From NCBI GenBank assembly GCA_044229975.1, contig JBGARZ010000002.1:544001-608000 (forward strand): a stretch of DNA of 64,000 nt, given 5' to 3'. The notes below the pieces were generated by a model. The model was not told the origin of the DNA and did not search any database. It was given only the letters and a program-made list of their open reading frames with translations. Source of the stretch: Polyangiales bacterium (lineage in GTDB: Bacteria; Myxococcota_A; Polyangia; Polyangiales; Ga0077539). How positions within the stretch are numbered: the first letter of the stretch is position 1; each line of letters begins with the position of its first letter. Shown here one piece after another: positions 14,678 through 43,400 of the stretch. The position numbers and the translations under genes are program-made.

Positions 14678-14690
14678 GGCTTTCCCCCTC

Positions 14691-15677: not shown

Positions 15678-15694
15678 CTCGTTGAACCTCCCGA

Positions 15695-17316: not shown

Positions 17317-17325
17317 CGTCGCCTC

Positions 17326-17353
17326 TGAACTTTCAGAAGATTCTGAACGTTCA
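17326..17353. promoter_or_regulatory. Palindromic operator TGAAC-T-TTCAGAA-GA-TTCTGAA-C-GTTCA
   Basis: AT-rich near-perfect inverted repeat about 10 nt upstream of the GbsR-family start. Confidence 0.8.
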
Positions 17354-17380
17354 TGTAGTGGGGCTGAGCTCACGGGTCAA
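17352..17380 (-). promoter_or_regulatory. Putative sigma70-type promoter TTGACC-N17-TACATG for the gbsR-men operon
   Basis: -35 at 17380-17375 and -10 at 17357-17352 on the minus strand, abutting the operator. Confidence 0.55.
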
Positions 17381-25310: not shown

Positions 25311-26356
25311 TCGGCCTCATCATCAACCCCAACTCCCGCAAGAACCGTCACCGCCGCGGTCGGGTCGCCCGCTTCGAGAAGGTGCTCGGCAAGCGCGGCC
25401 GCGTCATCGAGACGCCCTCCGTCGACGCCATCATCCCGGCGCTCAAGACCTTCGCCGCCGAGGGTCGCCGCTACTGGATCGCCGACGGCGGCGACGGCGC
25501 CCTCCACTGGATGATCAACGAGGCCATCCGCTTCTTCGGCGCCGCGCGCGCCGCCGAGGCCGCCGTGTACATGCCCACCGGCGGCGGCTCGGTGGACTTC
25601 GTCGCCAAGTACCTCGCCCTCAAGGGCGACCCGCACACCCTCGTCGGTCGCCTCGCCGACCGCGTCGCCGAGGGCCGCGACCCGGCTCCTCGCGAGGTCC
25701 CCTCGCTGCTCCTCCAGGGGCGACAGGTGGTCTACGGCGATGAGCCGACGGACTTCCGTCGCTACGGCTTCGGCAACGCGCTCGCGGGGTATGGCGCCAA
25801 CTTCTACGGCCCGCTCTACCGCGGCGAGGGCAAGCACGGCCCCGTGCAGATCGCACGGCACATCACCTCGGCCTTCGGCGCCGCCGCGCTCGGCGGGGCC
25901 TTCGCCGGGCCGCTCGCCGCCTTCAAGCCCGCGGCGCTGAAGCGCGCCGAGGAGGACTACCTCCGCCCGCTGCACGCCGAGGTTCGCATCGACGACGCGG
26001 TGCTGCGTGGCGATGACGGCCGCGCCATCGGCTCGCACACGGCGCTCAACTGCGCGTCGCTGCCGCTCAACCTCGCCGACATCATGCGGGTGTTTCCGCA
26101 GGCCGACGGGGGCCGGATGCATGTGCACGCGGGCAACGTAAGCGCGGCAGAAATGGCGCGGGTGTTCCCTGGGTTGATGACCGGTCGTTCGGTCAACCAC
26201 CTCCTGGCCAACGCCTACGATGGCCCGGCGAAGACGCTCGAAGTGACGTGCCAGGACGGCGACGAGATGACCCCCGTGATCGACGGCGAGCTCTTCTATC
26301 GCATCACGTCGCTGAGGGTCTCCATGGGACCGATGTTCCGCATGATCTCGCCGTAG
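25307..26356 (+). CDS. Diacylglycerol kinase catalytic-domain family protein
   Basis: IINPNSRK, DGGDGAL, PTGGGSVD, IDGE; ATGA overlap with the OmpA gene. Confidence 0.8.
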   Translation: MIGLIINPNSRKNRHRRGRVARFEKVLGKRGRVIETPSVDAIIPALKTFAAEGRRYWIADGGDGALHWMINEAIRFFGAARAAEAAVYMPTGGGSVDFVAKYLALKGDPHTLVGRLADRVAEGRDPAPREVPSLLLQGRQVVYGDEPTDFRRYGFGNALAGYGANFYGPLYRGEGKHGPVQIARHITSAFGAAALGGAFAGPLAAFKPAALKRAEEDYLRPLHAEVRIDDAVLRGDDGRAIGSHTALNCASLPLNLADIMRVFPQADGGRMHVHAGNVSAAEMARVFPGLMTGRSVNHLLANAYDGPAKTLEVTCQDGDEMTPVIDGELFYRITSLRVSMGPMFRMISP

Positions 26357-26391
26357 CCAACGGGGGCCGATACCGTTCATCATCACGGCGG

Positions 26392-29300
26392 GTGACGTTT
26401 CCGATCACGACGCGATTCCGGGCCATCGAGGTCCTCGGCCGAGGCGGCATGGGGGTCGTGTATCGCGCGTTCGATCACGAGGCCGGTCGCGTGGTCGCCC
26501 TGAAGACCGTGCGCCGCCCGAGCGGCGACGACCTGTACCACCTGAAGGCAGAGTTTCGATCGCTCGCCGACCTGTCGCACCCCAACCTCGTCGAGCTGCA
26601 CGAGCTCTTCGTCGACGGTGACCAGTCGTACTTCACCATGGAGGTCATCGAGGGCACGGGCATCCTCGATCATCTGTGGGGCGACGGCACCACCGCGACG
26701 GGGCCGGGCATCCCCCTCGACGGCATCGATCGCCTCGACCTCGTGCTGCCGAAGATCGTCGAGGGCATCGCGGCCATCCACCACGAAGGGCACCTGCACC
26801 GCGACCTCAAGCCCTCCAACGTGATGGTCACCTGGGAGGGCCGACCCGTCGTGCTCGACTTCGGCCTCGCCATCACCTGGCGCGACCTCGGCGCCGACCC
26901 CTCGACGTCGTCCTACGGGACCCAGTGCTACATGTCCCCCGAGCAGCTCAGCCACCAGGCGCTCGGCCCCGCGTCGGACTGGTTCGCGCTGGGCGCGCTG
27001 CTCTTCGAGGCCCTCACCGGCACCCTGCCCTTCCGCGGCACCGCCGAGGAGATCCTCGCGCAGCAGCGCCTCGGCCCGCCGTCACCGGCCGCGCTCGTGC
27101 CGTCGCTTCCTCCGCGCCTCGACACGCTCGTGCGTCGGCTCCTCGACCCCACGCCGAGCGCGCGCCCGGACTTCCTGGAGATCCTCCAGCTCCTCCAGGC
27201 GACGCCCGAGTCGCGCTCGTCGCTGCGCATGATGGTCTCCGTCGAGGCGCCCTTCCTCGGTCGTCGGCGCGAGCTCGACGCGCTCCGCGAGAGCGCCCAC
27301 GCGCTGGAGACGCAAGGGTGCTCGCTCGTGACCGTCGAGGGCGTGTCGGGCATCGGCAAGACCGAGATGCTCCGGCGCTTCCTCCTCACGCTGGAGGGCG
27401 AAGGGTCGACCCTCATCCTGCGGGGGCGCTGCCAGCCGCGGGAGTCCGTTCGCTTCAAGGCCTTCGATGGTCTCGTCGACGCGCTCAGTCGACACCTCCG
27501 ACGCATCGGCGATCGCGCCGCGGCGCTTCGCCCGCCCGACCTGCGCGACCTCCTGCGCCTCTTCCCCGTGCTCGCGCGCGTCCCTGGCTTCGAGCCCGCC
27601 GCCTCGGACGAGGCGCCCGCCGTCGACGACCCTCGCGCCGTCCGCCGCCGCGCCTTCGCGGCGCTGCGCCATGTGTTCACCGCCCTCGGCGCCACCTCAC
27701 GCGTCGTGCTCTGGATCGACGACGTTCACTGGGCCGACGAGGACAGCGCCGCCCTGCTCCGCGCGCTGCTCCAACCGCCCGCTCCTCCGCCCGTGCTGGT
27801 CATCGCGAGCTGGCAGCGCGAGCTCCGTGACGCGAGCGCGATGGTGGCCGCGCTGGAGTCCCTCGGCCGCGCATTGCCGACCGGGGCGTACACCGCGCTC
27901 TCGGTGGAGCCGCTCGGTGCGACCGACGCGCTTGCCCTCGCCCGTCGCATCATCGGCGACCGCGAGATCGACCTCGGCCTGCTCCTCGCCGAGTCCGGCG
28001 GAACGCCCTACTACCTCACCGAGCTGTGCCGCCGCGCGCGAGAGCTCCCGTCGGAGGCGGTGCGTCGGCTGCGGCTCTCGGACGTCATCGGCGAGCGCCT
28101 CGGCGCGCTGCCATCGGCCGAGCGAACCCTGCTGGAGTGCATCGCCGTCGCGGGTCGCCCGGTGCCGCGTGGGCTGCTGGTGCGAGCCGCGGGCGTGGGC
28201 GGCGCGGCGCGGCGGGCGCTGCTGCGACTCGGTGAGCTGCGGCTCGGGCGAAGTGCCTCGCTGCGAGACGGCGAGGTGGTCGAGATCTGGCACGACCGCG
28301 TGCGCGCCGCGGTGATCGCGGCATGCCCGCCCGAGCGACGCCGACAGACGCACGCGCGACTGGCCGAGGCGATGCTGGCGTCCGACGGGGCCGACCCCGA
28401 GGCGCTGGTGCTGCACCTGGAGGGCGCGGGCGACTCCGTGCGCGCCGCGGGCTTTGCGGTGGCCGCCGCCCAGCAAGCCGAAGAGGCGCTGGCCTTCGAC
28501 CGCGCGGCGACCCTCTACGCCGTCGCGCTCGCGCACCCGCCAGAGGGCACCAACGTGTCCGACCTGTGGCGACGGCGGGCCGATGCGCTGGTGTCCGCGG
28601 GTCGGGGCGGCGACGCGGCCGATGCGTTCCTTCGCGCGGCGGACTCCGCGACCGACGAAGCGGCCGACGACGTGCTCGACCTGCGTCGGCGTGCGGCCGA
28701 GCAGCTCTTGTTTTCCGGGCGCTACGAGGAGGGCCTGCGCGTGATGCTGGTGGTGCTCGACGCCGTGGGGGTGTCGCTCCCCCGGTCGCCGCGCGCCGCC
28801 ATCGTGTCGTCGCTCGTAGGACGAACCCGCTTCCTGGCGCGCACGCTCGGTCCGTCGACAGCCCGCGGTCGCACGCGCGTCTCGGCCCAGCGCCTCGACG
28901 CCCTGTGGACGGCGTGCGCCGCGCTCTCGATGGTGCAGCCCGCGCTGGCCGACGCGATGGGCGTGCAGCATCTGCTCGAATCGCTCGACCTCGGCGACCC
29001 CTCCCGCGCGGTGCGCGCGCTCGGCTACGAGGCCACGTGCGAGTCGTCGCTCGGCGGAGCCTTCTTCCGCAGCCGCTCACGCAAGCTGCTCGCCGAGACG
29101 GCGCGCCTCGCGGCCTCGACGGGCCGGCCCTACGACCGCGCGTGGTCGCTCATGGCGGACGGCACCACCGCGTGGCTGGAGGGACAGTGGGGCCGCGCGC
29201 TCGACCGCTGCGACGAGGCCCTCGCGGTGTACACGCGGGAGTGCCGCGGGGTCGCGTGGGAGACCGCCACGTCGCGCATCTACGCGCTCTCGTCGCTGGC

Positions 29301-30051
29301 GTGGTCGGGGCGCTTTGCCGACCTCGGGCGCCGCATGCCCGAGGCGCTCAACGAGGCCGAGGCCCACGGTGACCGCTTCGGCCTCGGCGGCTACTGCGTG
29401 GGACAGCAGGGGCTGCACTGGGTGGCCTCGGGTCACCTCGACGCGTGGCGCGCCTTCGCCGAGCGGGCGCGCTCGACGTGGCTGCCGGGGAGCTTCCACC
29501 TCCAGCGCTACTCGTACCTGGTGGCGGCGACGCAGGCCGACCTCGCGCGCGGCGACGGGTGGGGCGCCTTCCACCGCATCACCTCGGAGTGGGCGGCGCT
29601 GGAGGCGGCGCAGTTTCTCCGACTGGAGGTTCCGAGCGTGGAGCTGCTCCAGCTGCGAGCGAGGGCGGCGCTCTCGTGCGCGGAGGGGTCGGCGCCGACG
29701 GCGCAGGCCGGGTGGTCGCGCGCGCGCTTGCTGGCGCTGGTCGACGACGCGGCCGCGCGCATTGCGCGATGCCCGCTGCCCTTCGCGGCGCCGACGGCCG
29801 CGCTGCTGCGCGCGGGACGCGCCGTGCGGTCCGACCGGCCCGAGCGGGCGCGCGTCGAGCTCGTGGCCGCGGCCGAGGGCTTCGCGGCGGCGGGGATGGC
29901 GGCGCACCACGCGTTGGCGGCCTGGGAGCTCGCGACCATCGGCGCTCGCTCGGCGCCGACACCGGTAGAGACCGCGGCGTGGGCAGCGCGCGAGGCCATC
30001 GGCGACCTCGACGGGCTGCGGCGCGCGTTGCTGTGGGTCAGGAGTCGATAG
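26392..30051 (+). CDS. Ser/Thr protein kinase with AAA ATPase and TPR-like domains
   Basis: LGRGGMGVVY, VALK, HRDLKPSN, DFGLA, Walker A EGVSGIGKT, Walker B LWIDD. Confidence 0.92.
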   Translation: MTFPITTRFRAIEVLGRGGMGVVYRAFDHEAGRVVALKTVRRPSGDDLYHLKAEFRSLADLSHPNLVELHELFVDGDQSYFTMEVIEGTGILDHLWGDGTTATGPGIPLDGIDRLDLVLPKIVEGIAAIHHEGHLHRDLKPSNVMVTWEGRPVVLDFGLAITWRDLGADPSTSSYGTQCYMSPEQLSHQALGPASDWFALGALLFEALTGTLPFRGTAEEILAQQRLGPPSPAALVPSLPPRLDTLVRRLLDPTPSARPDFLEILQLLQATPESRSSLRMMVSVEAPFLGRRRELDALRESAHALETQGCSLVTVEGVSGIGKTEMLRRFLLTLEGEGSTLILRGRCQPRESVRFKAFDGLVDALSRHLRRIGDRAAALRPPDLRDLLRLFPVLARVPGFEPAASDEAPAVDDPRAVRRRAFAALRHVFTALGATSRVVLWIDDVHWADEDSAALLRALLQPPAPPPVLVIASWQRELRDASAMVAALESLGRALPTGAYTALSVEPLGATDALALARRIIGDREIDLGLLLAESGGTPYYLTELCRRARELPSEAVRRLRLSDVIGERLGALPSAERTLLECIAVAGRPVPRGLLVRAAGVGGAARRALLRLGELRLGRSASLRDGEVVEIWHDRVRAAVIAACPPERRRQTHARLAEAMLASDGADPEALVLHLEGAGDSVRAAGFAVAAAQQAEEALAFDRAATLYAVALAHPPEGTNVSDLWRRRADALVSAGRGGDAADAFLRAADSATDEAADDVLDLRRRAAEQLLFSGRYEEGLRVMLVVLDAVGVSLPRSPRAAIVSSLVGRTRFLARTLGPSTARGRTRVSAQRLDALWTACAALSMVQPALADAMGVQHLLESLDLGDPSRAVRALGYEATCESSLGGAFFRSRSRKLLAETARLAASTGRPYDRAWSLMADGTTAWLEGQWGRALDRCDEALAVYTRECRGVAWETATSRIYALSSLAWSGRFADLGRRMPEALNEAEAHGDRFGLGGYCVGQQGLHWVASGHLDAWRAFAERARSTWLPGSFHLQRYSYLVAATQADLARGDGWGAFHRITSEWAALEAAQFLRLEVPSVELLQLRARAALSCAEGSAPTAQAGWSRARLLALVDDAAARIARCPLPFAAPTAALLRAGRAVRSDRPERARVELVAAAEGFAAAGMAAHHALAAWELATIGARSAPTPVETAAWAAREAIGDLDGLRRALLWVRSR

Positions 30052-30610
30052 ACGACGCGCTGGAGATGAGTCCGCCTCGGCGGCGATCGGTGTCGCCCTC
30101 GATGGTGCGTACGGTCTGCTCCTGCAGCGTCACCATCTGCGAGCGCGGGTCGGACATCATCTTGCTGATGCGCACCATCAACATGTTGTCGACCATGAGC
30201 ACCGTGCGCTGGTTGGACAGCACCATGGACGCCGAGAGCTGCATCTCCCCGAGCCAAGGGCGAATGACCTGATCGAAGGCCCAGCGCGGGAGGATCACCG
30301 GCATCTCGGCCTCCATCACCGTCTGGATGTCGACGATAAGCTGCTGGACCTCTTCCTCCGAGAAACCCCGTGCCTTGACGCGCTCCTCCTTCCGGAGCGA
30401 CAGCACCTGCAGGCGCCCGCTGCGGCCCGACGGCAGGTCGATGCTCGCGCTGAGCTCCTTCGGATCCGGATAGTCCTTCCTGAGCGAGGCCTTGAGCATG
30501 TCGGCGTTGGCGCGCTTGTTGGCTACGGCGTCGGTGGCGACGTGACCGACGATCGTCACCAACCTCCCGATGGCGACGGCGAGCTTCTCAATCGGGGCGG
30601 CGATGGCCAT
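30038..30610 (-). CDS. Hypothetical protein (190 aa), last gene of the operon
   Basis: ATG (MAIAAPIEK) overlapping the oxidoreductase 3' end, GAGGA upstream; Met-rich, helical. Confidence 0.65.
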   Translation of the reverse strand: MAIAAPIEKLAVAIGRLVTIVGHVATDAVANKRANADMLKASLRKDYPDPKELSASIDLPSGRSGRLQVLSLRKEERVKARGFSEEEVQQLIVDIQTVMEAEMPVILPRWAFDQVIRPWLGEMQLSASMVLSNQRTVLMVDNMLMVRISKMMSDPRSQMVTLQEQTVRTIEGDTDRRRGGLISSASSIDS

Positions 30611-33600
30611 TGGGTTCCTCGTCCAGGTCGAGTTGTCGCGGCAGGAGCGCCTCGGGAATCGCGTCGATGCCGAGGATCTCCACCAGGTGGGGATACCCGT
30701 CGACGAAGAGCTGTCGGTCGATCTCACGCAGGTCGACGAAGTCCGGTAGTTCCATCTCTTCAGGGTTCCAGATCTTGCAGCGGTCACCGGGCGCGCCGGA
30801 GACGCGCAGGATGGCGTTGACCGCGTGCCGCGCCGACTCGTTGGCCGCCTCCATGGTGGTGAGCCGCGTGAAGGTCTTCATGTACGTGCCGGCGAGCACC
30901 CAGCGCCCGTTCTGCATCGCGTAGCCCTTCGCCTGGTCCTGCGGGTCGATGCGCCCGGGTCGCAGCTTCCACTCACCGGGTCGGTTGATGAGGTAGGGCG
31001 AGAGGTTCTTGGCGATGCCCTGTCCATCACCCAGGTCGCGGAAGAAGATGATGCTCTCGTCGAGGTGGTAGCAGCTTGGCAGGAGGTTTCGCGCGCCGCC
31101 GACCAACACATCGAGGGCAGCCTCGCCGGAGGCGCCCTTGGGCTTCGCGCCGCGCGTGCCGAACCGCGGAGGAGACCGCTTGCCGAAGCCCAGCGGCATC
31201 TTGCCGAGGTTGCCGCCGACGCTGCCGTCGCTCGCGGCTTCGCTCGTCACGCGCCGCAGCCCCTGGGTGTCCACCGCGATGCTCTCGCGAACCTGCTCCC
31301 ACACCGTGTGGGCGATCTGGTCGGCGGTGCACTTCCACCCCTTCAACGAAGCGGTGGTGGAAGGCGCGTAGCCGGGCATCGTGCTCGGGATGGTGACGTC
31401 TGCCTCGCGGTGCAGCGCCCCGATGTCAACCGACACGATGCCCCGGTAACCGTAGACGCCCGTCGGACGTCGCCGCCAGAAGTGGGCCTGCGAGATGGAC
31501 GACAGCCGCCACGGCGCGTCCATGTAGAGGGTGTGCTCCTGCCCGAACTGGATGTTGTTGTCGAAGAGGTACTGCACCCCGGTGAGGTGACGCAGCGGCC
31601 CGAGCCCGACGTCACGCGGCGTCTTGGCCTTCGCGATCTCGGACTGCCATTCGATGAGCGCCGCGATGTCGGACGAGCTGCGCAGCGCCTTGAGGACGCG
31701 CTCCTGTTGCTGGATCTGTTCGGGCTTGAGTGTCGGCGTCGAGGCAAGGGCGACGGACTCCTTGAGCAACGCCTCGCGCTTCGCAACGCGCTCCCGCACG
31801 CCCTCCATGGCTCGCTCGAACTTGCGCGCGAGCCCGAAGCCCTCGTCGTCCTTCGCGTCCTCGACGCGCGTGTCCGGGACGAGCGGCGGAGCGGTGCCCT
31901 GAAGCGTCTGGTCAGACCGCCTCAGGTTGAACTCCGGGACGTCGAGCATCGCCGTCAGCGGCGTCGCGACGACGAAGTAGTGACTGCGTAGCTCGGTGTC
32001 GAAATTCTCCAGCGGCATCGGCTGACCGTCGATGAGCACCGTGGGCAGGAGCACGTCGGCCATGTGCAGCTCTGCGACGTCGCTCGGCGGCTGGAAACCC
32101 ACGAGCGACCCACGGAGGAACTTCACTCCCCGGTAGATCAGATAGTCGCGCCAGGGGTCGAACCACGCGACGGAGGTCGGGCCGTTGAGCGTCGCGTCGG
32201 TGATGGTGCGCCCGGCGAGCTGGTCGATGAGGAGCTGCGTCACGCAGTTGCCCTGGGTGCGCGTCTCGCTCTCGCTCGCGGTCATCGCGCCGAGCACCTC
32301 GGGGCCGAGCTCCATGTGCCTCCGGCACGTCTTGGTGAAGCGCTCGCCCTCGATGAAGTCCCACCAGGTGAGGTCTTCGAACTCCGCCGCCCGCCGCTCG
32401 GTCGACGAGGTCATGTACTGGAAGAGCTTGGTGCTGATGCGGGAGACGTCCTGCGCGCTGTACCCGAGCTCGCGCACGAAGCTCTCCAGCAGCTTCAGCG
32501 TCTGCTGGATCGACCGCGGCGGCCGACGCGGGAAGCTCACGAGCCGCTGCCGGGTGGCCTTGCCGTCGCCGCTCGCCGCGATGGGCTCGGGCGCATCGTC
32601 GTCGTCGTCCTCGCGCGGCTCGTCCTCGCCCTCGTCGCGACCGCTCGGGGCAGCCTTCGGCGCCGGGGCGGCCTCCTTGTCGTCGCCGTCCTTGTCGGTC
32701 GACACCGCAAGCCACGTGGCCTCGGTCGACACCAGGTTGTCGAACACGGTTCGCACCGCCGGGCCGAAGCGATCGACGCCGGGCTGGAGAATCGGCGTAC
32801 GGCGCATCGTATCGAAGAGGTGTCGATAGAAGCCCGGGAAGTATCGGAAGCCGTGCTCACCCGGCACGACGCCCCGACCCTTCACTCGCACCTCGACGCG
32901 GAAGGTCTCCAGCGTCTCGACCCAGAGGATGTCTTCCTCCCGTGTTGCGTCGGCCCACCTGGCGTAGGCGTCCTCGGCTGCGTCCTTCCCACGCAGTTGG
33001 CGCTCCTCACCGATGGCAACGTTGAGCCGTCGCTTGATCTCATCGCGCACGTCCTCCGCGTCCTTGCGGATGCTCGCAGCGGCGCCCGCGGTATCGGCAA
33101 GGTCCGAGTGCTTCATCGGCCCTAGGAGCACAACCGACAGCGCCTGATAGCCGGCACCCCGCGTCGCTTCGCCCACGCGCCGGACAAAGCCCGTGAGCTC
33201 GGCGACGATCGGCTCCCACAACTGCGGGACGGCTTCCGTCGAGGTGGGGCTCACCTTCGCGATCTCTTCGACCGTGAACTCGAACGACGGGTGGCGCACG
33301 AATGGCAGCGCCCGCGCGATGCGCCCCTCGTCCTCCGGTGGCGTGGGCTTCGGCTTGCCCGCCTGCTTCGCCTCCTCCGCCGCCCGCGCCTCGCCCGCCT
33401 TCCGCGCGTCGGCCCTCTCCCGCGCCTCCCGCTCGGTCTCGCCGGTCGGGATGTACGCCCACTGCGTGCGCGCCAATCCCCCCACCGCAGGCAGGTCGTC
33501 GTCCCAGGAGTCCTCCGCGGGCTCGACCAGGTACACCTCGTACCCGCGCTCGATGCACTCGTGCGCGACCGACAAGCCAGTGATGCCGCCGCCGAAGACC

Positions 33601-33641
33601 CAGACCACCGAGGTCGAGTTCCGTCTCGTCTCTTCGCTCAT
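30588..33641 (-). CDS. FAD-dependent oxidoreductase (phytoene desaturase/HpnE-like superfamily) with large insertions, 1017 aa
   Basis: VFGGGITGLSVAHE Rossmann motif, VGGLAR, PGEHGFRYFPGFY, LNGPTS..WFDPW, LAGTY...TMEAANESAR. Confidence 0.85.
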   Translation of the reverse strand: MSEETRRNSTSVVWVFGGGITGLSVAHECIERGYEVYLVEPAEDSWDDDLPAVGGLARTQWAYIPTGETEREARERADARKAGEARAAEEAKQAGKPKPTPPEDEGRIARALPFVRHPSFEFTVEEIAKVSPTSTEAVPQLWEPIVAELTGFVRRVGEATRGAGYQALSVVLLGPMKHSDLADTAGAAASIRKDAEDVRDEIKRRLNVAIGEERQLRGKDAAEDAYARWADATREEDILWVETLETFRVEVRVKGRGVVPGEHGFRYFPGFYRHLFDTMRRTPILQPGVDRFGPAVRTVFDNLVSTEATWLAVSTDKDGDDKEAAPAPKAAPSGRDEGEDEPREDDDDDAPEPIAASGDGKATRQRLVSFPRRPPRSIQQTLKLLESFVRELGYSAQDVSRISTKLFQYMTSSTERRAAEFEDLTWWDFIEGERFTKTCRRHMELGPEVLGAMTASESETRTQGNCVTQLLIDQLAGRTITDATLNGPTSVAWFDPWRDYLIYRGVKFLRGSLVGFQPPSDVAELHMADVLLPTVLIDGQPMPLENFDTELRSHYFVVATPLTAMLDVPEFNLRRSDQTLQGTAPPLVPDTRVEDAKDDEGFGLARKFERAMEGVRERVAKREALLKESVALASTPTLKPEQIQQQERVLKALRSSSDIAALIEWQSEIAKAKTPRDVGLGPLRHLTGVQYLFDNNIQFGQEHTLYMDAPWRLSSISQAHFWRRRPTGVYGYRGIVSVDIGALHREADVTIPSTMPGYAPSTTASLKGWKCTADQIAHTVWEQVRESIAVDTQGLRRVTSEAASDGSVGGNLGKMPLGFGKRSPPRFGTRGAKPKGASGEAALDVLVGGARNLLPSCYHLDESIIFFRDLGDGQGIAKNLSPYLINRPGEWKLRPGRIDPQDQAKGYAMQNGRWVLAGTYMKTFTRLTTMEAANESARHAVNAILRVSGAPGDRCKIWNPEEMELPDFVDLREIDRQLFVDGYPHLVEILGIDAIPEALLPRQLDLDEEPNGHRRPD

Positions 33642-34078
33642 CGCCCCGCTGCCTCCCTTTCCGCGCTCGTAGATACAACGTCCCCGCGAAACGCGTCCAT
33701 CATCCAAGGAAACGAAGGGCTCCGAACCGCCCCGCGCAGAAACTCCAGCAGCCCGTCGTGGAAGGCCGCGAGGTCGGCCACGCGCCCGCGCAGCACCGTC
33801 TGCCCGAGCACCACGGACGTGACGAGCGAGCGCTCGGCATCGACCAACGCGACGATCTCGCGCCGCGTCGTGGTCAGCGTCACCGCGGGTGCGACGGGCT
33901 CGTCTCGCAGCCACACCCGCGCGCCGTCGCTCTGCACCGCGGTCACCTCGCCGTCGACGGTGATGGTCACCTCGCGCACCCCGAGCGCCGCCGCCATGCG
34001 CGCGTGCGCCCACGGCAGTTCTGCCAGGAGCGTGCGCAGTCCACGGTCGACCCACTCCCGAAACGGCGCCCTCGTCAT
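33638..34078 (-). CDS. SCP2 sterol/lipid-binding-like protein
   Basis: 146 aa; pattern VTLTTTRREIVALVDAERSLVTSVVLGQTVLRG resembles the SCP2 C-terminal half. Confidence 0.55.
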   Translation of the reverse strand: MTRAPFREWVDRGLRTLLAELPWAHARMAAALGVREVTITVDGEVTAVQSDGARVWLRDEPVAPAVTLTTTRREIVALVDAERSLVTSVVLGQTVLRGRVADLAAFHDGLLEFLRGAVRSPSFPWMMDAFRGDVVSTSAEREAAGR

Positions 34079-34086
34079 CGCCCCGC

Positions 34087-35133
34087 CTACGCCCCCAGGA
34101 ACTCGAAGATCGCCCGGCCCCGCATCGCCACGTGCTCGCCCCGCACGCGCCCCTGCACGGTGACATCGCCGCTCACCTCGTGGATGACCGTCACGCCCGG
34201 GTCGTGGTCGTTGGGGATCACCACGGCCGCGACGTCCTCGGCGTCGAAGCGGAAGGTCACCTCATCGCCGTCTCCGCGCGCGGTCACCACCAGCGACTTC
34301 GGAACGTCGGTGACCGTCCCTGGCGTCACGAGCGCCATCGCCCGCGGCAGCTTGAAGACCCTCGACGCGCGCAGAAACCCGACGCGCTCCACGGTCACGT
34401 CCGCCGCCCGCATCACGCGATGCTGGAAGAGCCCGCGCCAGAGGAAGAGCGCCTGCATGTACGCCCGCGTATGGGCGCGATCGCTCAGCCGCACGAACAC
34501 CATGCTCCACGGGTTGTCCTCGCACGCCTCGGGCAGTCCGTAGCCCCACTCCCACGCGAAGTCCCTGCCCCACGCGAAGTGCCCCCAGTTGTGGTCGTGG
34601 TAGGCCCGCGCCCGGTCGATGCGCGTGACCCTCTCCCCGATGCGCACCTCGCCGCTCGCCACCATGCGCGGCAGCACCATCCAGTTGATGGGCGGCCCCG
34701 GGTCGAGGACGATGTTGTGCGCGAGCGAGGGCACACACCCCGGCTCCAGCCGCAGCGAGATGGCGATGGGGCGGTGGCGCAGCTTCACCTCGATGACGTA
34801 GCGGTCGTCCTCGAAGGCCACGCGGTTGCCGCCGAAGCCCATGTGCAGTCCACCGCCCGCGACCTCCACCTCCGCGGGCTCGAACAGCTCCACGTCGCCG
34901 TCCCACGTGTGGTCGCGCACGAGCACCACCACCCGCGCAAACTCCTGGCCTCCCGGCGCTCCGTCGCGCACGTCGTCGACGAGGCTGAAGTTGACCAGCA
35001 CGTCGAGGCCCGGGGCATACACGCAGAAGTGCCACCACTCCTTGTGACCCGAGGCGCCGCCTTGCGCGAAGGGCGAGCGACGCAGCCAGTCGGCGTCGGC
35101 GACCGCCTTCGACAGCAGCTTCAACGCAGCCAC
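34087..35133 (-). CDS. CrtC/AttH/tocopherol-cyclase-like beta-rich protein
   Basis: KEWWHF near the N-terminus, YHDHNWG..., WEWG. Confidence 0.7.
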   Translation of the reverse strand: MAALKLLSKAVADADWLRRSPFAQGGASGHKEWWHFCVYAPGLDVLVNFSLVDDVRDGAPGGQEFARVVVLVRDHTWDGDVELFEPAEVEVAGGGLHMGFGGNRVAFEDDRYVIEVKLRHRPIAISLRLEPGCVPSLAHNIVLDPGPPINWMVLPRMVASGEVRIGERVTRIDRARAYHDHNWGHFAWGRDFAWEWGYGLPEACEDNPWSMVFVRLSDRAHTRAYMQALFLWRGLFQHRVMRAADVTVERVGFLRASRVFKLPRAMALVTPGTVTDVPKSLVVTARGDGDEVTFRFDAEDVAAVVIPNDHDPGVTVIHEVSGDVTVQGRVRGEHVAMRGRAIFEFLGA

Positions 35134-35438
35134 TCGGAGGTGCGGGCCCGCGACGTGACCGGCCCCGCCGGAGTGTCGGTGCGGGGGCGAGCGATGGCCT
35201 CCCCGAGGATTCGGCGCAGCGTGGCGCGCAACGAGGCGAGGCCCAGGACGAAGGCGATGAGCTCGGCGTCGCGCGGGCCGGGTTCGCTCGTCGATGGCGT
35301 CGCGTCGCGCGGGGCGAAGGCGTCGACGAGCGCGTCGAAGCGACGACCGTAGGACTCCAGACCCAGCAGGAGATGGAGCCAGGCGTTGCGGGTCACGAAC
35401 TCGTCGCCGTGGTGCTGGGTCTCGGTCGCGCGGTTCAC
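35121..35438 (-). CDS. Hypothetical protein (105 aa)
   Basis: GTG start overlapping the upstream stop (GTGA); fills the operon gap. Confidence 0.55.
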   Translation of the reverse strand: MNRATETQHHGDEFVTRNAWLHLLLGLESYGRRFDALVDAFAPRDATPSTSEPGPRDAELIAFVLGLASLRATLRRILGEAIARPRTDTPAGPVTSRARTSEWLR

Positions 35439-35821
35439 GTCGCGTCGTCGTCGGGGTGGAGGCGGAAGAGGCGGGTCAGCATCGGTTCGAGGTCGGGCAC
35501 CGTGGCCGCCTTCGCGAGGGCGTCCATCAGCCTCGACGGGAGCGCCGTGGTGGGCTTCTCTTCCAGCACGTTGAGCGTGCCGACCTCCCACACGACACGC
35601 CCGCGCCGGATGAGCTCGGAGCCCGCGAGGCGGTCGCGGAGCGCGGCTCCGTCGGGCGTCTCCGCGAAGGCGCGACCCTCGGAGACCATCGCGGCGAAGA
35701 GGGCCTGCGCCGAGACCGGGTACCGCAGGATGAGCTGCTGGGCCTGACGCAACGCCGCGAAGAGGCCGTCCTCCTCGTGCACCTCGAACTCGATCACCTC
35801 GTCGGGGTCGGACGCAGACAC
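35435..35821 (-). CDS. Hypothetical protein (128 aa)
   Basis: Protein-like sequence (LILRYPVSAQALFAAMVSEGRAFAETPDG); coupled to its neighbours. Confidence 0.75.
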   Translation of the reverse strand: MSASDPDEVIEFEVHEEDGLFAALRQAQQLILRYPVSAQALFAAMVSEGRAFAETPDGAALRDRLAGSELIRRGRVVWEVGTLNVLEEKPTTALPSRLMDALAKAATVPDLEPMLTRLFRLHPDDDAT

Positions 35822-35825
35822 CGGG

Positions 35826-36629
35826 TCAGCCGTCGAGGTCGAAGCGCAGCGCGACGCGGATCACCTTGCCGACCTCGCCGTTGCGCGTGGGCAGGCGATA
35901 CTCCCCCGTCGCCTCGGCCTGCGGATTCATGAGGGCGAGGGTCTCGGGCTTCCACGAGATGCGAAGCCGCAGCGGCAGCACTCCGCCTGGCGGGACCTTC
36001 ACCGGCTCGCGCAGCACCTCGACCCGCAGGAGGTCCTTGTCCACGCCGGGGCTCCCCGACCAGTCCATCTTGATGGTCTCGATCGCGAAGCGCTGCGTCG
36101 GCTCGGTCTCGCTCGGGGGTGGCAGCTCGGGCTTCGGCCATGCCTCGCGGGTGAGGTTCTTCGCGCGAAACTGCCGGATGACCTCGCAGCGGTCGGTGAG
36201 CGGCTTGTCCTCCGGGCGCTCCTTCCGGTCGGCCTCGACGGCCTTCACCGGAATGGTGAGCGACAGCACCTCGCCGCGGTTGCCCCGCACCGGAAACCCG
36301 AGGAGGTCACCGACGCGCTCCTCCAGGCGACCCATGTGGCGGCCGCGCATGTCGATGAGCGAGTCGAGGGTTCGCACCTGGAGGCGCGCGATGTCGAAGA
36401 AGAGGTCGCCCGCGCGTCGGAGGTCATCGAGCTTGGGGAGCAGTGACGTGACCCGGAGCTTGCGCTCGGACGACCCGCTGCCCGGCACCTCGTCGAGCGC
36501 ATCGGCCGCGCGCCGCACCGCCTCCTTCCCGTCGTGGATTCCCTTGAGGATATCCACCGCGGTCACGATGGACCGGCTCTTCACGGCGTTGAGAAACTCC
36601 GCCTGGGGATTGAGGTTCGTCGCGCTCAC
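35826..36629 (-). CDS. Hypothetical protein (267 aa), first gene of the operon
   Basis: GTG start with AGGGA upstream; helical N-half, beta-rich C-half. Confidence 0.65.
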   Translation of the reverse strand: MSATNLNPQAEFLNAVKSRSIVTAVDILKGIHDGKEAVRRAADALDEVPGSGSSERKLRVTSLLPKLDDLRRAGDLFFDIARLQVRTLDSLIDMRGRHMGRLEERVGDLLGFPVRGNRGEVLSLTIPVKAVEADRKERPEDKPLTDRCEVIRQFRAKNLTREAWPKPELPPPSETEPTQRFAIETIKMDWSGSPGVDKDLLRVEVLREPVKVPPGGVLPLRLRISWKPETLALMNPQAEATGEYRLPTRNGEVGKVIRVALRFDLDG

Positions 36630-36728: not shown

Positions 36729-39700
36729 ATGCGTGTGCCCAGACCAGGCTTGTTCGTCGTCACGGCCGCACTGGCCGCCACCCTCTTCACCCCGTCGGCG
36801 CGGGCCGTGTGGCCCCCGACGGCCGACATGACCGCGGACGACCTCTCGCGCCCCGAGAACTGGCCCAACGATCCGGGCTACGCCTACAACAGCCGCGGGG
36901 ATGGCCAGTGGCAGTGGTGGAGCTGGGTGCCGCAGGTCACCCGCATGGTCGCCAACTTCCGCGTCCAGGAGATCGCGATGGGCGCGGGCAACAACGTCGA
37001 CCGCGCGTGGGGCATCTCCATCGGCGACCCGCGGGTGCTCATCGCGGTGCTCGACTCGGGCATCAACTGGGACAGCGACGACCTCGTCAACAAGGTCGCC
37101 CTCAACACCGCCGAGCTCCCGATGCCGATGGGCGCCACCAGCCATGACGCCAACGGCGACGGCGTGGTCAGCCCGGCCGACTACCTCAACGACACGCGCA
37201 TCACCTGTGGCGTCGCGGGCATGCCCCGCAACCAGTTCTCGTGCCGCGGCTCCGACGGGATGCCCAACGACCCCAACGCCAACGGCATCCTCGATGGCGG
37301 CGACCTCATCCGGGTGTTTTCCGACAGCACCGATGCGGACAACAACGGCTACGTCGACGACATCGCCGGCTGGGACTTCATGCATGACGACAACGACCCG
37401 GCGGACGACACCCGCTTCGGTCACGGCACCGGCGAGGCCCGCGACTCCACCGCCGAGGGCAACAACATGCGCGGCGGCATCGGCGCCTGTCCGCGCTGCC
37501 GCTTCATTCCGACCCGGGTCGGCGACAGCTTCATCACGGACGTCCAGGACTTCGGCCAGGCCGTCGTGTACGCCGTCGACCGCGGCGCCAGCGTGGTGCA
37601 GGAGGCCCTCGGCACGCTCAACAACTCCCGCTTCTCACAGGCCGCCGTCGACTACGCGTACCGCAACAACGTGGTCGTGATGGCCAGCGCGGCGGACGAG
37701 AACTCGCGCCACCACAACATGCCGGGCACGCAGAACCACACCGTCTACGTGCACGCGGTGACCTTCGACTCGGCCAACATCAACGCCGCGACGACCTTCA
37801 TCAACTTCAACAACTGCACCAACTACGGCGCGCAGCTGGTGCTGTCGGTGGGCGGCGAGGGCTGCTCGTCGGCCGCCACGGGCTACTCGTCCGGCATGGC
37901 CGGGCTCATCTACTCCGCGGCGCTGGAGCGCAACCTCACCCCGGCCCTCTCGGCCGAAGAGGTCAAGCAGCTGCTCATCACCACCGCGGACGACATCAAC
38001 GTCCCGGAGAGCCAGCCCACGCACCCGATGTGGGACCGCACCAAGTACCCCACGGGCCCCGGCTGGGACCAGCGCTCGGGCTACGGCCGCACCAACGCCC
38101 GCCGGGCGCTGGAGCGCGTGCGCGCCGGACAGATTCCTCCCGAGGTCGACATCGTGTCGCCGCGGTGGTTCACGGTGTTCGACCCCGACCGCGCGCCGCA
38201 GCAGACGCTGCGCATCGAGGGCCGCATCGCCGCCCGCCGCGCGCCGCGCTTCGACTACACCATCGAGTACGCCACCGGGATCGAGCCCGCCGACACCGCC
38301 TGGGTCATGGTGCGCCGCGAGACCAACGTCACCGCCGCCGTCACCAACACCCTCGGTGAGATCGACCTCCGCACGCTCACCATCAACAACCCCGGTGAGA
38401 TCGAGAACCGCTACACCCTCACCGTCCGCATCCGCGTGACGGCCCACTACGACTCGCCCATCGGCGACGTGACGGGCGAGACGCGACGGGCGTTCTATGT
38501 GCACCGCGACCCGACGGTGCTCCCGGGCTTCCCCATCGACCTCGCGTCGGGCGGCGAGAGCTCTCCGCACCTCGTCGACCTCAACGGCGACGGCTCGCGC
38601 GAGATCATCTTCGCCACCGCCGACGGCGACGTGCACGCCTTCGGCGGCAACGGCGTCGACATCGCCGGCTGGCCCGCCCACACCGGCCGCGTGCAGGGCT
38701 ACGACCCCGCGCGCATGCCCAACTACCTCGGCGCGCGCGCGTTCCAGCCGGTCGCCGGCGGCCCGGCGCCGCTCGATGCGTCGCTCATCCGCGAGTCCAT
38801 CCTCGCCACGCCCGCCATCGCCGACCTCGACGGCGACATGCGCCCCGAGGTCATCGTCGGTACCTACGCCGGGACCATCCACGTCTTCCGCGCGGACGGC
38901 ACCGCCTACGGCCACGGCTTCCCGTACACCCTGCCCGACGTGCCGAGCTCGGCCACCTCGCCGGAGCGCATCCAGGCGCGCGGCATGTTCGGCGACCCGG
39001 TGATCGCCGACCTCAACAACGACATGCGCCCGGAGATCATCTTCGGCGCCTTCGACGGCAAGGTCTATGCGCTCGACGCGATGACCGGCGCCGTGCGCCC
39101 GGGCTTCCCGGTGGTGATCCACTTCCCCGAGGAGGGAACCAACTTCAACCGCGTCTTCGGCAGCGTCGGCATCGGCGACATGGACGGCGACGACCGCCCC
39201 GACATCGTCTCGGTGTCGAGCGAGGGCCTCCGCGGCGACAACAACCAGGGCGCGGTCTACGTCATCTACGGCGACGGCAACCTGCACGCGGGCGGACCCT
39301 TCCACCCCAACTGGCCGATCCCGTACCTGTCGTTCAACTTCTTCCCGCTCATTGGTGAGGGTGTCTCTTCGTCGCCCGCCATCGCCGACCTCGACAACGA
39401 CGGTCGTGATGAGCTCGCGCTCGTCGGCACCGGCAACGGCGTCATCACCCTCGCCCGCGGCGTCCAGCCTCCGCACGTCGCCCGCCCGGCGCCGCAGACC
39501 CTCGCGCAGGGCGTCTCGATCCGCAGCGCGATGCGCGGCCGCCTCACCAACGTCAACGGGTCGCTCGTGTCGTTCATCCCGGCGTTCTCGCTCGGAACCT
39601 TCGGCGACATGACCAACGACGGCGTGCCCGACTTCATCATCACGGGTGCGAGCCTCAACCTCGCGATCAACCTCGCGGGCGGCGGTCGCGCCTTCCCCAT

Positions 39701-40385
39701 CGACCACCTCGCCGGTGGCTTCGATGGCACCACGGGCAACGCCCTCCCCGGCTTCCCGCGGCTCCTCGAGGACTACACGTTCTTCTACAATCCCTCGATG
39801 GCGGACGTCGGCGGCGACGCCTACCCCGAGGCGCTCATCGGCACCGGCGGCTACTACCTCCACGGCTTCGACGGCTGCGGCCGCGAGCCCGACGCGTGGC
39901 CGAAGTTCACCGGCCAGTGGATCATCGCCAACCCCGCCGTCGGCAACATCCGTGCTGAAGGCCGAAACGACGTCGTCGCGGGCACACGCTCGGGCTTCCT
40001 CTGGGCGTGGAGCACCACGACGCAGGCCGCCACCGCCAGCGTGCAGTGGCCCTCGCACCGCCACGACCCGGCCAACACCGGCAACTGGGGCACCGCGCTC
40101 AACCAGGGCGTGCGCCGCGTTCCGGGGCTCGGTCCCCTCGACTGCCCGCTGCCCCCGATCGAAGACGCCGGGACTCCCACCGAAGACGTGGGCACCGTCG
40201 TCGCCGACGCGGGCACGGTCACCACCGACGCCGGGACGCCCGCCGCCGACGCTGCGACCACCACCCCGCCGACCATCGAAGGGGACGGCTGCGGATGCCG
40301 CACCAGCCCCACGGGCACGCCCCGCGCGGGCCTGATCGCCCTCGGTCTCGCGATGCTCGCCGTGCGCCGTCGCCGCCGCGGCTGA
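36729..40385 (+). CDS. Secreted S8-family serine peptidase with FG-GAP/VCBS repeats and MYXO-CTERM (paralogue 1)
   Basis: IAVLDSG, DNNGYVDDIAGWDF, GHGT, GYGR, DLNGDG repeats, GCGC-TM-RRRRR. Confidence 0.88.
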   Translation: MRVPRPGLFVVTAALAATLFTPSARAVWPPTADMTADDLSRPENWPNDPGYAYNSRGDGQWQWWSWVPQVTRMVANFRVQEIAMGAGNNVDRAWGISIGDPRVLIAVLDSGINWDSDDLVNKVALNTAELPMPMGATSHDANGDGVVSPADYLNDTRITCGVAGMPRNQFSCRGSDGMPNDPNANGILDGGDLIRVFSDSTDADNNGYVDDIAGWDFMHDDNDPADDTRFGHGTGEARDSTAEGNNMRGGIGACPRCRFIPTRVGDSFITDVQDFGQAVVYAVDRGASVVQEALGTLNNSRFSQAAVDYAYRNNVVVMASAADENSRHHNMPGTQNHTVYVHAVTFDSANINAATTFINFNNCTNYGAQLVLSVGGEGCSSAATGYSSGMAGLIYSAALERNLTPALSAEEVKQLLITTADDINVPESQPTHPMWDRTKYPTGPGWDQRSGYGRTNARRALERVRAGQIPPEVDIVSPRWFTVFDPDRAPQQTLRIEGRIAARRAPRFDYTIEYATGIEPADTAWVMVRRETNVTAAVTNTLGEIDLRTLTINNPGEIENRYTLTVRIRVTAHYDSPIGDVTGETRRAFYVHRDPTVLPGFPIDLASGGESSPHLVDLNGDGSREIIFATADGDVHAFGGNGVDIAGWPAHTGRVQGYDPARMPNYLGARAFQPVAGGPAPLDASLIRESILATPAIADLDGDMRPEVIVGTYAGTIHVFRADGTAYGHGFPYTLPDVPSSATSPERIQARGMFGDPVIADLNNDMRPEIIFGAFDGKVYALDAMTGAVRPGFPVVIHFPEEGTNFNRVFGSVGIGDMDGDDRPDIVSVSSEGLRGDNNQGAVYVIYGDGNLHAGGPFHPNWPIPYLSFNFFPLIGEGVSSSPAIADLDNDGRDELALVGTGNGVITLARGVQPPHVARPAPQTLAQGVSIRSAMRGRLTNVNGSLVSFIPAFSLGTFGDMTNDGVPDFIITGASLNLAINLAGGGRAFPIDHLAGGFDGTTGNALPGFPRLLEDYTFFYNPSMADVGGDAYPEALIGTGGYYLHGFDGCGREPDAWPKFTGQWIIANPAVGNIRAEGRNDVVAGTRSGFLWAWSTTTQAATASVQWPSHRHDPANTGNWGTALNQGVRRVPGLGPLDCPLPPIEDAGTPTEDVGTVVADAGTVTTDAGTPAADAATTTPPTIEGDGCGCRTSPTGTPRAGLIALGLAMLAVRRRRRG

Positions 40386-40464
40386 TCGCCTCGTCTCCCT
40401 CCTACCGACTCTCGTTCAACTCCCCCTCGCGCCTCGCGCAAACCTTCCGGTAGCATCCGCCGCG

Positions 40465-43400
40465 ATGCGCCCCTATCGCCGTTGGTTGTCTCGTGGGCTG
40501 GGCCTCGCGCTCGGCCTCGGGACCTTGCTCGCCACGCAACGAAACGCGGAGGCCGTCTGGCCGCCGCGCCCGGAGATGACCGCCGCCGACCTGTCGATGA
40601 TGGCCAACTGGCCCAACGACCCCGGCTACGCGGGGCAGTGGGAGCACTGGTCGTGGGTGCCTGGAGCGAACCTCACCTTCCCGAACTTCCGCACCGCGGA
40701 GGCGACGATGGGGACGGGCAACAACACCGACCGCGCGTGGGCCATCTCGGTGGGAGATCCGCGGGTGCTCATCGCGGTGCTCGACTCGGGCATCAACTGG
40801 GACAACGACGACATCGTCAACAAGATCGCCCTCAACACCGCCGAGCTCCCGATGCCCGAAGGGGCGACGAGCTACGACAGCAACGCCGACGGCGTGGTGA
40901 ACATCCTCGACTACCTCCGCGACTCGCGCGTGACCTGCGGGACGGGCGCCGTCGCGATGCGCAACCCGCGTCAGTGCCGCGGCACCGACGGGATGCCCAA
41001 CGACCCCAACGCCAACGGCGTGCTCGACCCGGGCGACCTCATCCGGGTGTTCTCCGACCGCACCGACGCGGACAACAACGGCTACGTCGACGACATCGCG
41101 GGCTGGGACTTCTTCCAGGACGACAACGACCCGGCCGACGCCACGCGCTTCGGCCACGGCACCGGCGAGATGCGCTGGAGCGCCGCGGAGACCAACAACG
41201 GCATCGGCGACGCCGGCGACTGTCCGCGCTGCATGCTCGTCCCCATCCGCGCGGCCGACAGCTTCATCGGCGAGGTCGACGACTTCGCGCAGGGCGTCGT
41301 GTACGCCGTCGACCGCGGCGCGCGCGTGGTGCAGGAGGCGCTCGGCACGCTCGACAACAGCACCTTCGCGCGCCGCGCCATCGACTACGCGTACGCCCAC
41401 AACGTGCCCGTCATCGCGAGCGCGGCGGACGAGAACTCCCGGCACCACAACGTGCCCAGCACCAACAACCACACGCTGGTGGTGCACGCCATTCGCTACG
41501 ACGGAGAAAACGTCCAGCGCAGCACGACCTTCCTCAACTTCAACAACTGCACCAACTACGGCGCGCAGCTGATGCTGTCGGTGTCGGGCACCGGATGCTC
41601 GTCCGAGGCGACGGGCCACACCGCGGGCCACGCCGGGCTGCTGCACTCGTACGCGTTGGAGCACAGCCTCACGCCCGCGCTCTCGGCCGAGGAGATCTAC
41701 CAGCTCCTGCGCACGACCACCGACGACATCAACGTGCCGGAGAGCCAACCCACGCACCCGATGTACGACAACAGCAAGTACCCGTCGCTGCCGGGGTGGG
41801 ACCAGCGCTTCGGCTACGGTCGTACCAACGCGCGGCGCGCGATGGAGTCGCTGCGCGACGGGAAGATCCCCCCCGAGGTCGACATCGTCTCGCCGCAGTG
41901 GTTCACCAACTTCGACCCCGACCGCGCGCCCCAGCAGACGCTGCGCATCGAGGGCCGCATCGCCGCCCGCCGCGCGCCGCGCTTCGACTACACCGTCGAG
42001 TACGCAACCGGCGTCGAGCCCGCTGACACCGCCTGGGTGATGGTGCGCCGCGAGACCAACGTCACCGCCGCCGTCACCAACACCCTCGGCGAGATCGACC
42101 TCCGCACGCTCACCATCAACAACCCCGGCGAGCGGTCCGATCGGTACACGCTCTCGGTGCGCATCCGCGCCGTGGCCCACTACGACTCGCCCATCGGTGA
42201 CGTACTGGGCGAGACGCGGCGTGCGTTCTTCGTGCACCGCGACAACACCGTGGTGCCGGGCTTCCCGATCGACGTGGGCGGCTCGGGCGAGAGCTCGGCC
42301 AAGGTGGTCGACCTCAACGGCGACGGCTCGCGCGAGATCATCTACGGGACGGCCGACGGCGAGCTGCACGCCATCCGCGGCGACGGCACCGAGCTCGCGG
42401 GCTTCCCGGCGCACACGGTGCCGCTCTACGGCATGAACAGCGCGCACGCGACCAACTACCTCGCCAGCGCGGCGTACTCGGGCACCACGCCCGCCATCGA
42501 CCCGGCGACGATCTACGACCCCATCGTGGCCACGCCCGCGGTCGCCGACCTCGACGGCGACGGCACCGTCGAGATCGTGGTGTCGACCTATCACGGCACC
42601 GTTCACGTCTTCAATCACGACGGCACGGCGTACGGCCACGGGTTTCCCTACGCGCTGCCCGACGTGACGAGCGCGATGACGGCGCCGGACCGCATCCTCC
42701 AGCGCGGTCTCTTCTCGTCGCCGGTGCTCGCCGACCTCGACAACGATAGCCGCCTCGACATCGTGTTCGGCGCGATGGACGGGCACGTCTACGCGCTCAA
42801 CGGGATGACCGCCGCGGTGAAGCCGGGCTTCCCGGTGGAGATCCACTTCCCCGAGGCGAACACCGAGTACAACCGCATCTTCGGCAACGTCGGCATCGGC
42901 AACTTCAACGGCGACAACATCCCGGACATCGTCGCGGTCTCCAGCGAGAAGCTGCGCGGCGACAACAACACCGGTGCCATCTACATCGTGCACGGCGACG
43001 GCAACCTGCACGCGGGCGGACCGTTCCACCCCAACTGGCCCATCGCGATGACGTCGTTCAACTTCTTCCCGCTGGTGGGAGAGGGCATCTCCGGCGCGCC
43101 GCCCATCGCGGACATCGACGGCGACGGCCGCGACGAGCTGGTGCTCACCGGCAACGCGCTCCCGACCATCGCCTTCGCGCGCGGGGTGCAGGCGCCCCAC
43201 GAGCGGCGCCCGGCGCTCAACACCCTCGCGGTGCAGGCCCTCGCGCAGACCTCGCGCCGCGGCCCGCTCACCAACAACACCACGCAGATCGTGTCCTTCG
43301 CCAACGTGTTCAGCATGGGCGCGTGGGGCGACATGGACGGCGACCAGAGCCCCGACTACGTGATCTCCGGCGCCGAGCTCAACCTCGCCATCAACCTCGG

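Follow-up and report, generated by a model that had tools for sequence, protein, structure and literature searches.

What do seven closely spaced minus-strand genes of a Polyangiales bacterium do, and do they make up a complete pathway? The genes, G1 to G7, occupy positions 30038-36629 of a 64,000-nucleotide stretch of contig JBGARZ010000002.1 (assembly GCA_044229975.1, positions 544,001 to 608,000), the whole of which we call the window. An original prediction, made from the letters of this stretch, described them as one operon in which a hydratase or cyclase, a lipid carrier and a desaturase act on a prenyl or long-chain lipid. The three families hold, and the substrate can be narrowed to the product of a prenyl-diphosphate synthase (IDS). 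What does not hold is the set of seven as a whole unit, as the IDS is detached from it, a STAND kinase is linked to it, and G7 and G1 are not universal. We put at about 80% the probability that the locus, with the detached IDS counted in, is an isoprenoid-lipid module. The window genes would be the processing half of the pathway, converting a C20-type prenyl diphosphate supplied by a dedicated synthase elsewhere in the genome.

A conserved module and its detached synthase

The genes, with the insert of G6 and the convergent kinase, are:

G1, 35826-36629, minus strand, 267 aa: optional accessory protein with a helical N-terminal region and a C-terminal Ig-like domain
G2, 35435-35821, minus strand, 128 aa: core protein, all-helical, from a family without a name
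G3, 35121-35438, minus strand, 105 aa: core small protein with two Leu/Gly-rich hydrophobic segments
G4, 34087-35133, minus strand, 348 aa: double beta-barrel protein of the AttH/CrtC/tocopherol-cyclase type
G5, 33638-34078, minus strand, 146 aa: weakly SCP2-like, putative lipid-binding protein
G6, 30588-33641, minus strand, 1017 aa: FAD-binding oxidoreductase of the HpnE/phytoene-desaturase superfamily, enlarged by insertions
G6 insert, 32868-33464, minus strand, residues 60-258: hypervariable, flanked by the FAD loop and the EHG motif
G7, 30038-30610, minus strand, 190 aa: lineage-restricted accessory open reading frame (ORF) without a family
Ser/Thr kinase-AAA (STAND) protein, 26248-30051, plus strand, approximately 1220-1270 aa: convergent on the operon, true start probably near 26390

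A re-check of the ORFs upheld the lengths and spacing first described, with junctions from G1 to G7 of, in order, a 4 nt gap, overlaps of 4 and 13 nt, an 8 nt gap and overlaps of 4 and 23 nt, and the motifs quoted for the operon proteins were found in their sequences. GC content at third codon positions is 0.86-0.94 in the seven genes, each of which is single-copy in the genome (10.0 Mb, 93% complete). Compared with locus L002, identity at second codon positions exceeds that at third positions in all seven genes, with many synonymous changes, although for G7 the margin is narrow (0.67 against 0.62). A promoter and terminator scan of the locus gave no signal above chance.

A G4 search of genome contigs returned 80 loci; the 62 close relatives (L001-L062) were used for counts, and the other 18 (L063-L080), distant G4 relatives lacking the module, were left out of them. 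The 62 loci are named as Myxococcota, Binatia, Acidobacteriota, Anaerolineae, an actinomycete, an acidimicrobium and Sphingomonas, and the order IDS-(G1)-G2-G3-G4-G5-G6 is fixed across phyla. With profiles built from these same loci, G3 and G4 were detected in all 62, G2 and G5 in 61 each, IDS in 55, G6 in 50, the G1 family in 37 and G7 in seven. The test set beforehand, that a prenyl synthase accompany these genes in other genomes, thus came out in favour. As for the unassigned ORFs, which were to be checked for travelling with the flavoprotein, G2 and G3 do so, whereas G1 is optional and G7 is confined to the closest lineage. Fifteen further loci were fetched separately, one of which (L130) duplicates L038; 11 gave a strong G4 match, and all 11 have IDS, G2, G3, G5 and G6 in the conserved order.

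Several of the G6 absences are contig ends, and in three Sorangium loci G6 is displaced, yet present in the genome. At its place, after G5, the Sorangium loci L033, L035 and L037 carry a CHAT-STAND-WD40 gene and a weakly peptidase-C25-like gene. The module is patchy, found in 9 of 301 sampled genomes of the window's own phylum and 7 of 301 in an actinomycete class. Its carriers include cultured, non-pathogenic myxobacteria (Sorangium L007, Corallococcus L031, Vitiosangium L036 and Pyxidicoccus L045), which opens it to direct lipidomics.

The IDS gene heads the operon on the same strand in 49 of the 62 loci and is adjacent on the opposite strand in six, five of these being close relatives of the window; it is not in the neighbourhood of the window or of its four closest loci. 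In this genome the orthologue lies at 75745-76950 of contig C2, recovered at E 1e-172, with two other synthases at E 1e-28 and 6e-26. It matches the trans-isoprenyl diphosphate synthase family PF00348 (E 2.9e-59), and both Asp-rich motifs, DDxED and DDxL, which are invariant in 49 of 49 IDS sequences, are intact. Within the genus (nine genomes), IDS and G4 are both present in the same five genomes and both absent from the same four; the two genes lie on different contigs, and the genomes, as kin, are not independent, nor are their assemblies complete. Such joint presence and absence is what one would expect if the partner were still in use. Among 41 relatives, G4 was found in 13 and IDS in 15, and every G4 genome has IDS. 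The nearest solved relatives of the IDS are the geranylgeranyl diphosphate (GGPP) synthases 1wmw (E 8e-74) and 1wy0, while its best NCBIfam model is the short-chain IdsA, below cut-off as are all NCBIfam models. Judged by these nearest relatives, the enzyme likely makes GGPP.

A second prenyl synthase, overlooked at first, lies inside the window (approximately 15695-16600, minus strand). It was ruled out as the partner of the module by its E value (6e-26 against 1e-172) and by its setting in a quinone-type run (12783-17373, minus strand) that comprises a MarR regulator, this polyprenyl synthase, a DAHP synthase and a UbiE/MenG methyltransferase. Elsewhere, a parallel operon (L138:5322-12672 and L139:4283-16984) encodes an HpnE-like flavoprotein, a 230-250 aa protein, an IDS with 47-49% identity to that of this genome and a 1200-1350 aa acetoacetate-decarboxylase-like protein, with none of G2 to G5; in L139 it is preceded by a STAND-GAF-histidine kinase. 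It may be a sister system that uses another beta-barrel enzyme.

The predicted enzymes and their possible substrates

The hydratase/AttH fold proposed for G4 is borne out by its predicted structure (pLDDT 93), a tandem beta-barrel of the AttH/CrtC/tocopherol-cyclase superfamily over the whole length of the protein. The model aligns with AttH (2ich; Z 27.9, rmsd 3.2 Å, 287 residues), kievitone hydratase (Z 25), 25-phosphosteroid lyase (Z 24) and the fungal pericyclases CghA/Fsa2/Phm7 (Z 24); matches of the AttH type span Z 23-28, and the next fold scores Z 9. While G4 shares this double barrel from end to end with these enzymes and with NE1406, it is only 10-15% identical to them and stands apart as a family, marked by an invariant His-Asp-His motif of its own and by its constant link with a prenyl synthase.

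The 25-phosphosteroid lyase match (its role taken from the accessible part of PMC11061730) is what would favour reading the locus as a catabolic one that breaks down the side chains of isoprenoids or sterols, with G4 as a phosphosteroid-lyase-like enzyme, G5 as a sterol carrier and G6 as a dehydrogenase. We regard this as very improbable, given that the module includes a conserved biosynthetic synthase with intact motifs and that no transporters, CoA ligases or beta-oxidation genes are among the conserved neighbours.

The invariant residues of G4 are E32, W33, W151, Y178, H179, D180, H181, W194 and W196. Five of them, W151-Y178-D180-W194-W196, are invariant in 53 of 53 family members at spacings of 27/2/14/2, close to the 25/2/15/2 of W241-Y266-D268-W283-W285 in CrtC (residues from the accessible text of PMC4717167 and PMC12402844), an equivalence of spacing and not of alignment, which tells against too close a parallel. 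According to those portions of the two papers, the proton for the terminal prenyl bond is proposed to come from Asp268 of CrtC, and His239, Trp241 and Tyr266 are essential (PMC4717167), while Trp110, Trp283 and Trp285 stabilise the cation, and the enzyme also hydrates short terpenes, geranylgeraniol poorly (PMC12402844). Since G4 combines a nearly CrtC-like spacing, W33 included, with the lack of the CrtC histidine and with its own invariant His pair flanking the Asp, it is probably a protonating enzyme that works like CrtC, yet is not a CrtC.

The CrtC model PF07143 has no match in the window protein and matches three of 53 homologues at E<=0.1 (best E 0.002), and the match to it elsewhere in this genome, tried as a CrtC, proved to be an AttH-like paralogue instead. 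The tocopherol-cyclase model PF14249 (Tocopherol_cycl) weakly matches 30 of the 53 homologues (best E 3.8e-4), by which alone the family resembles tocopherol cyclase. These matches bear on a chromanol or meroterpenoid pathway, in which G4 would close a ring on a prenylated quinol drawn from host quinone metabolism; SCP2 domains serve quinone biosynthesis, and UbiJ is among the top PDB rows for G5. Such a pathway seems improbable to us, in that no curated cut-off was shown to be reached for Tocopherol_cycl, the window G4 has no match to it, and the module conserves neither an aromatic prenyltransferase nor a methyltransferase; indeed, no conserved prenyltransferase neighbour was seen.

The assignment of G5 to SCP2 stands, weakly, through its homologues: PF02036 is matched at E<=0.1 by 24 of the 54 family members (best 3.2e-5) and has no match in the window protein. 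For G6, which carries an N-terminal FAD loop, an EHG-type motif and a C-terminal ME(G/A)A motif, the earlier placement in the phytoene desaturase/HpnE superfamily holds, by way of compact relatives; the protein belongs neither to HpnE itself nor to a known desaturase family. Residues 255-560 retrieve relatives of approximately 540 aa (E 1e-30 to 1e-24) with PF01593, and these compact relatives score best to the HpnE, phytoene desaturase and zeta-carotene desaturase models, all far below cut-off. For HpnE (TIGR03467) the window protein reaches 14.7 bits and the compact relatives 69-95, against a cut-off of 283, and there is no hpnC or hpnD context. The likeness to the HpnCDE squalene pathway ends there, as the module lacks hpnC, hpnD and shc and its flavoproteins have large inserts.

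The G6 insert ranges from 13 to 740 aa across 49 copies. It is OmpA-like in eight of 12 homologues scanned, three of them above cut-off, the 12 having been picked by eye as likely OmpA-like, so that this is not a frequency; in two homologues it is WD40. In the window copy the insert is unrecognisable, and no link could be made to the OmpA-like inserts of homologues (E 0.02-0.035). Pyxidicoccus L045 (11332-21020) has four tandem G6 copies with differing inserts. Approximately 36 kb before the window (C38:504356-507968, minus strand; L131), an AttH-like lipocalin gene stands directly upstream of a phytoene-desaturase-like flavoprotein, and Nocardia L079 has a similar pair, its flavoprotein with a weak Tat-signal match; an AttH-fold protein with a flavoprotein may be a recurring two-gene unit.

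With G4 and G6 taken together, the locus could be read as a carotenoid-tailoring cassette in which IDS is CrtE, and G4 and G6 are a divergent CrtC and CrtD acting on C40 backbones from a phytoene synthase elsewhere in the genome. The module does resemble crtE/crtC/crtD (with the CrtC of Rubrivivax gelatinosus) in pairing a GGPP-type synthase with an AttH-fold protonating enzyme (Tyr-x-Asp, Trp-x-Trp) and an FAD enzyme of the desaturase superfamily, and on contig C14 of this genome a phytoene-synthase match lies next to a desaturase. We nevertheless hold this reading unlikely. The module has neither crtB nor crtI, and no phytoene synthase stands among the conserved neighbour clusters (read by eye, without a Pfam-model scan); G4 has no His239 equivalent and falls below the CrtC family, its Pfam model being matched by so few members; G6 is nearer HpnE and phytoene desaturase than CrtD and about twice the size of CrtD; and the module adds SCP2, G1 to G3 and the STAND kinase. 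We know of no crt cluster of which SCP2, G2 or G3 is a part. The original prediction had already noted that crtB, hpnCD and shc are missing from the window and that it fits neither a standard carotenoid nor a hopanoid cluster. Both statements stand: the genome has two squalene/phytoene-synthase matches (contigs C14 and C36) and one partial squalene-cyclase-domain match (contig C10), all outside the window on other contigs, and none is among the conserved neighbour clusters.

A possible route and what weighs on it

For the isoprenoid-lipid module we propose a specific route, which we consider moderately probable. First, the detached IDS would make GGPP. Asp180 of G4, set in a tryptophan cage, would then protonate a prenyl double bond as CrtC does, most likely giving a tertiary alcohol, with phosphate elimination or ring closure as the other outcomes known for the fold. 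G6 would desaturate or reduce the chain with FAD, in a pairing of hydratase and flavoprotein that may be likened to CrtC/CrtD or HpnC/HpnE, and G5 would carry the insoluble intermediates, the end product being a modified isoprenoid lipid. G2, G3 and the optional G1 would act as non-catalytic scaffold or lipid-surface proteins, which is the weakest step, and the linked STAND kinase would regulate the pathway. Gene content, linkage, co-occurrence, folds and motifs are the observations from which we infer chain length, every reaction and the roles of G1 to G3 and of the kinase.

Several points weigh against this route. The IDS has Ala five residues before its first Asp motif, and Ala at this place can permit chains beyond C20. 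In two relatives an IDS match occurs where G4 is missing, one match being on a contig end in a 1850-contig assembly and the other belonging to a different operon. In G4, the His that lies two residues before the conserved Trp in CrtC (His239) is absent, position 149 being Ile or Leu in 52 of 53 members, and the fold is common to the Diels-Alderases CghA, Fsa2 and Phm7, so that it does not fix the chemistry. The top PDB profile rows for G5, SCP2 and UbiJ, are weak (E 0.09-0.25), and G6 was not found, by a single query, in Anaerolineae and Sphingomonas genomes that have the other module genes. Furthermore, the conserved neighbour clusters, read by eye, hold no phytoene synthase, terpene cyclase, UbiA prenyltransferase or phosphatase, so that a step removing the diphosphate is missing; it is accounted for only if G4 or a host phosphatase performs it. 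Finally, the model is drawn from genes, predicted folds and motifs.

The Anaerolineae and Sphingomonas forms (L051:287-2320, L055:5173-7201 and L058:6585-8667) have no adjacent G6 and carry three extra upstream ORFs, Ig-like or Cys-rich, without Pfam matches; in L058 the IDS adjoins an acyltransferase and IspH. Distant forms that retain only G4, G5 and IDS occur in L119, L120 and L122, two of which adjoin common unnamed ORFs of 590-720 aa and 240-290 aa, with an IspH-like gene close by in L120.

A dedicated prenyl synthase that stands with no phytoene or squalene synthase, terpene cyclase or aromatic prenyltransferase implies that something else must commit the prenyl diphosphate, the candidates being G4 or the unnamed G2 and G3 families. 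Taken to its limit, this leads to a bolder and doubtful proposal: a new class of terpenoid pathway, without canonical terpene cyclase or phytoene synthase, in which the AttH/CrtC-fold protein would be the committed terpene-forming enzyme, by diphosphate elimination or cyclisation of GGPP, housed within a protein compartment (formed in actinomycetes by an unrecognised encapsulin-like shell, in myxobacteria by a coat of G1, G2 and G3) and switched by the STAND kinase.

The shell in this proposal comes from a 258-aa ORF that directly precedes IDS in five actinomycete loci, L057 (7339-8115), L059, L116, L117 and L118. In the three examined it is itself preceded by a STAND protein, the single one scanned having AAA-GAF-cyclase domains. 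The ORF is one of a family that numbers at least 349 unnamed proteins, and it has no Pfam, PHROG, NCBIfam or PDB match. Against nine Family 1 encapsulin shells it aligns collinearly, end to end, over 196 columns, but weakly (E 0.014, probability 3%; controls E 0.38-0.82). Operons of Family 2 encapsulins with polyprenyl-transferase or terpene-cyclase cargo are known, from the accessible part of PMC8346489, and an encapsulin-sized ORF before IDS recalls them, whereas the alignment is to Family 1 shells only and no library model matches. This genome has no Family 1 encapsulin match, and the encapsulin-sized ORF is not in the myxobacterial loci. We therefore treat the ORF as only a lead to a shell protein.

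To our knowledge, the module matches no known pathway gene for gene. Literature searches, whose coverage excluded most subscription papers and supplements, found no published description of it; as far as their accessible parts go, the nannosterol paper (PMC10152446) and PMC4558948 concern other clusters. We see the module as a variant on the isoprenoid gene clusters, and there is a real chance that its chemistry is new. Several unnamed families, the enlarged HpnE-like flavoproteins among them, would gain a function through it, and it may reveal a new lineage of shell proteins.

The linked kinase, the small proteins and the flanking genes

The STAND kinase, convergent on the operon and overlooked in the first reading, is part of the conserved neighbourhood: of 40 scorable loci, 25 have it immediately downstream, five have it at another place in the locus and ten lack it. 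Of 41 kinase ORFs, 40 are closest to the window copy among the three paralogues of this genome, the ORFs having been selected with that copy. The linkage suggests that the kinase may regulate the pathway. It also invites the thought that the lipid is a signal or defensive product of a sensing or conflict module, with the kinase as its switch and, in the variable insert of G6, a sensor or anchor able to adapt, a reading compatible with the isoprenoid-lipid module and different in purpose. Along with the kinase itself, the different STAND protein that heads both the actinomycete form and the parallel IDS-flavoprotein operon, the patchy spread, the range of insert lengths and the four G6 copies of L045 speak for it. 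Given that a quarter of the scorable loci lack the kinase, that its convergent orientation allows no co-transcription and that myxobacteria have many such kinases, we think this purpose quite unlikely.

Single-sequence Pfam, NCBIfam and PHROG scans of G1, G2, G3, G5 and G7 gave nothing useful. Few conserved polar residues in G1, G2, G3 and G7 suggest structural roles, the weakest part of our model. Where present, G1 always stands immediately ahead of G2; its family has no Pfam assignment, and its best PDB match is FAP47 (E 2.7e-4), over the C-terminal half. A phasin identity for its helical part was dropped, as none of 33 members had Pfam support. G2 represents a tight family without a name, which forms 471 clusters at 50% identity; the protein is all-helical, with G49, G58 and P95 invariant. 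Its model (pLDDT 75, pTM 0.53; best ESM Atlas score 0.80) had no Foldseek match and no better than Z 4.1 in a wide structure search, and profile matches to vinculin (E 0.01, 37 positions) were judged to be chance. In G3 the two hydrophobic segments are repeated and poorly conserved (24% column identity), and 14 of 57 members reach the membrane-helix hydrophobicity threshold; by sequence, G3 is likely an amphipathic hairpin. The 3' end of G7 overlaps the stop of the kinase gene by 14 nt.

On the far side of the kinase, upstream of it, an OmpA-family protein is followed by a diacylglycerol-kinase-like gene (23967-26356, plus strand), and the OmpA gene is also found in L001 and L002. At the other end of the operon, two tandem 1218-aa subtilase/FG-GAP proteins (36729-44121, plus strand), the first with a MYXO-CTERM tail that, like the names of the nearest loci, indicates a myxobacterium, diverge from it, and one such subtilase/FG-GAP gene also adjoins the module in L001-L004.

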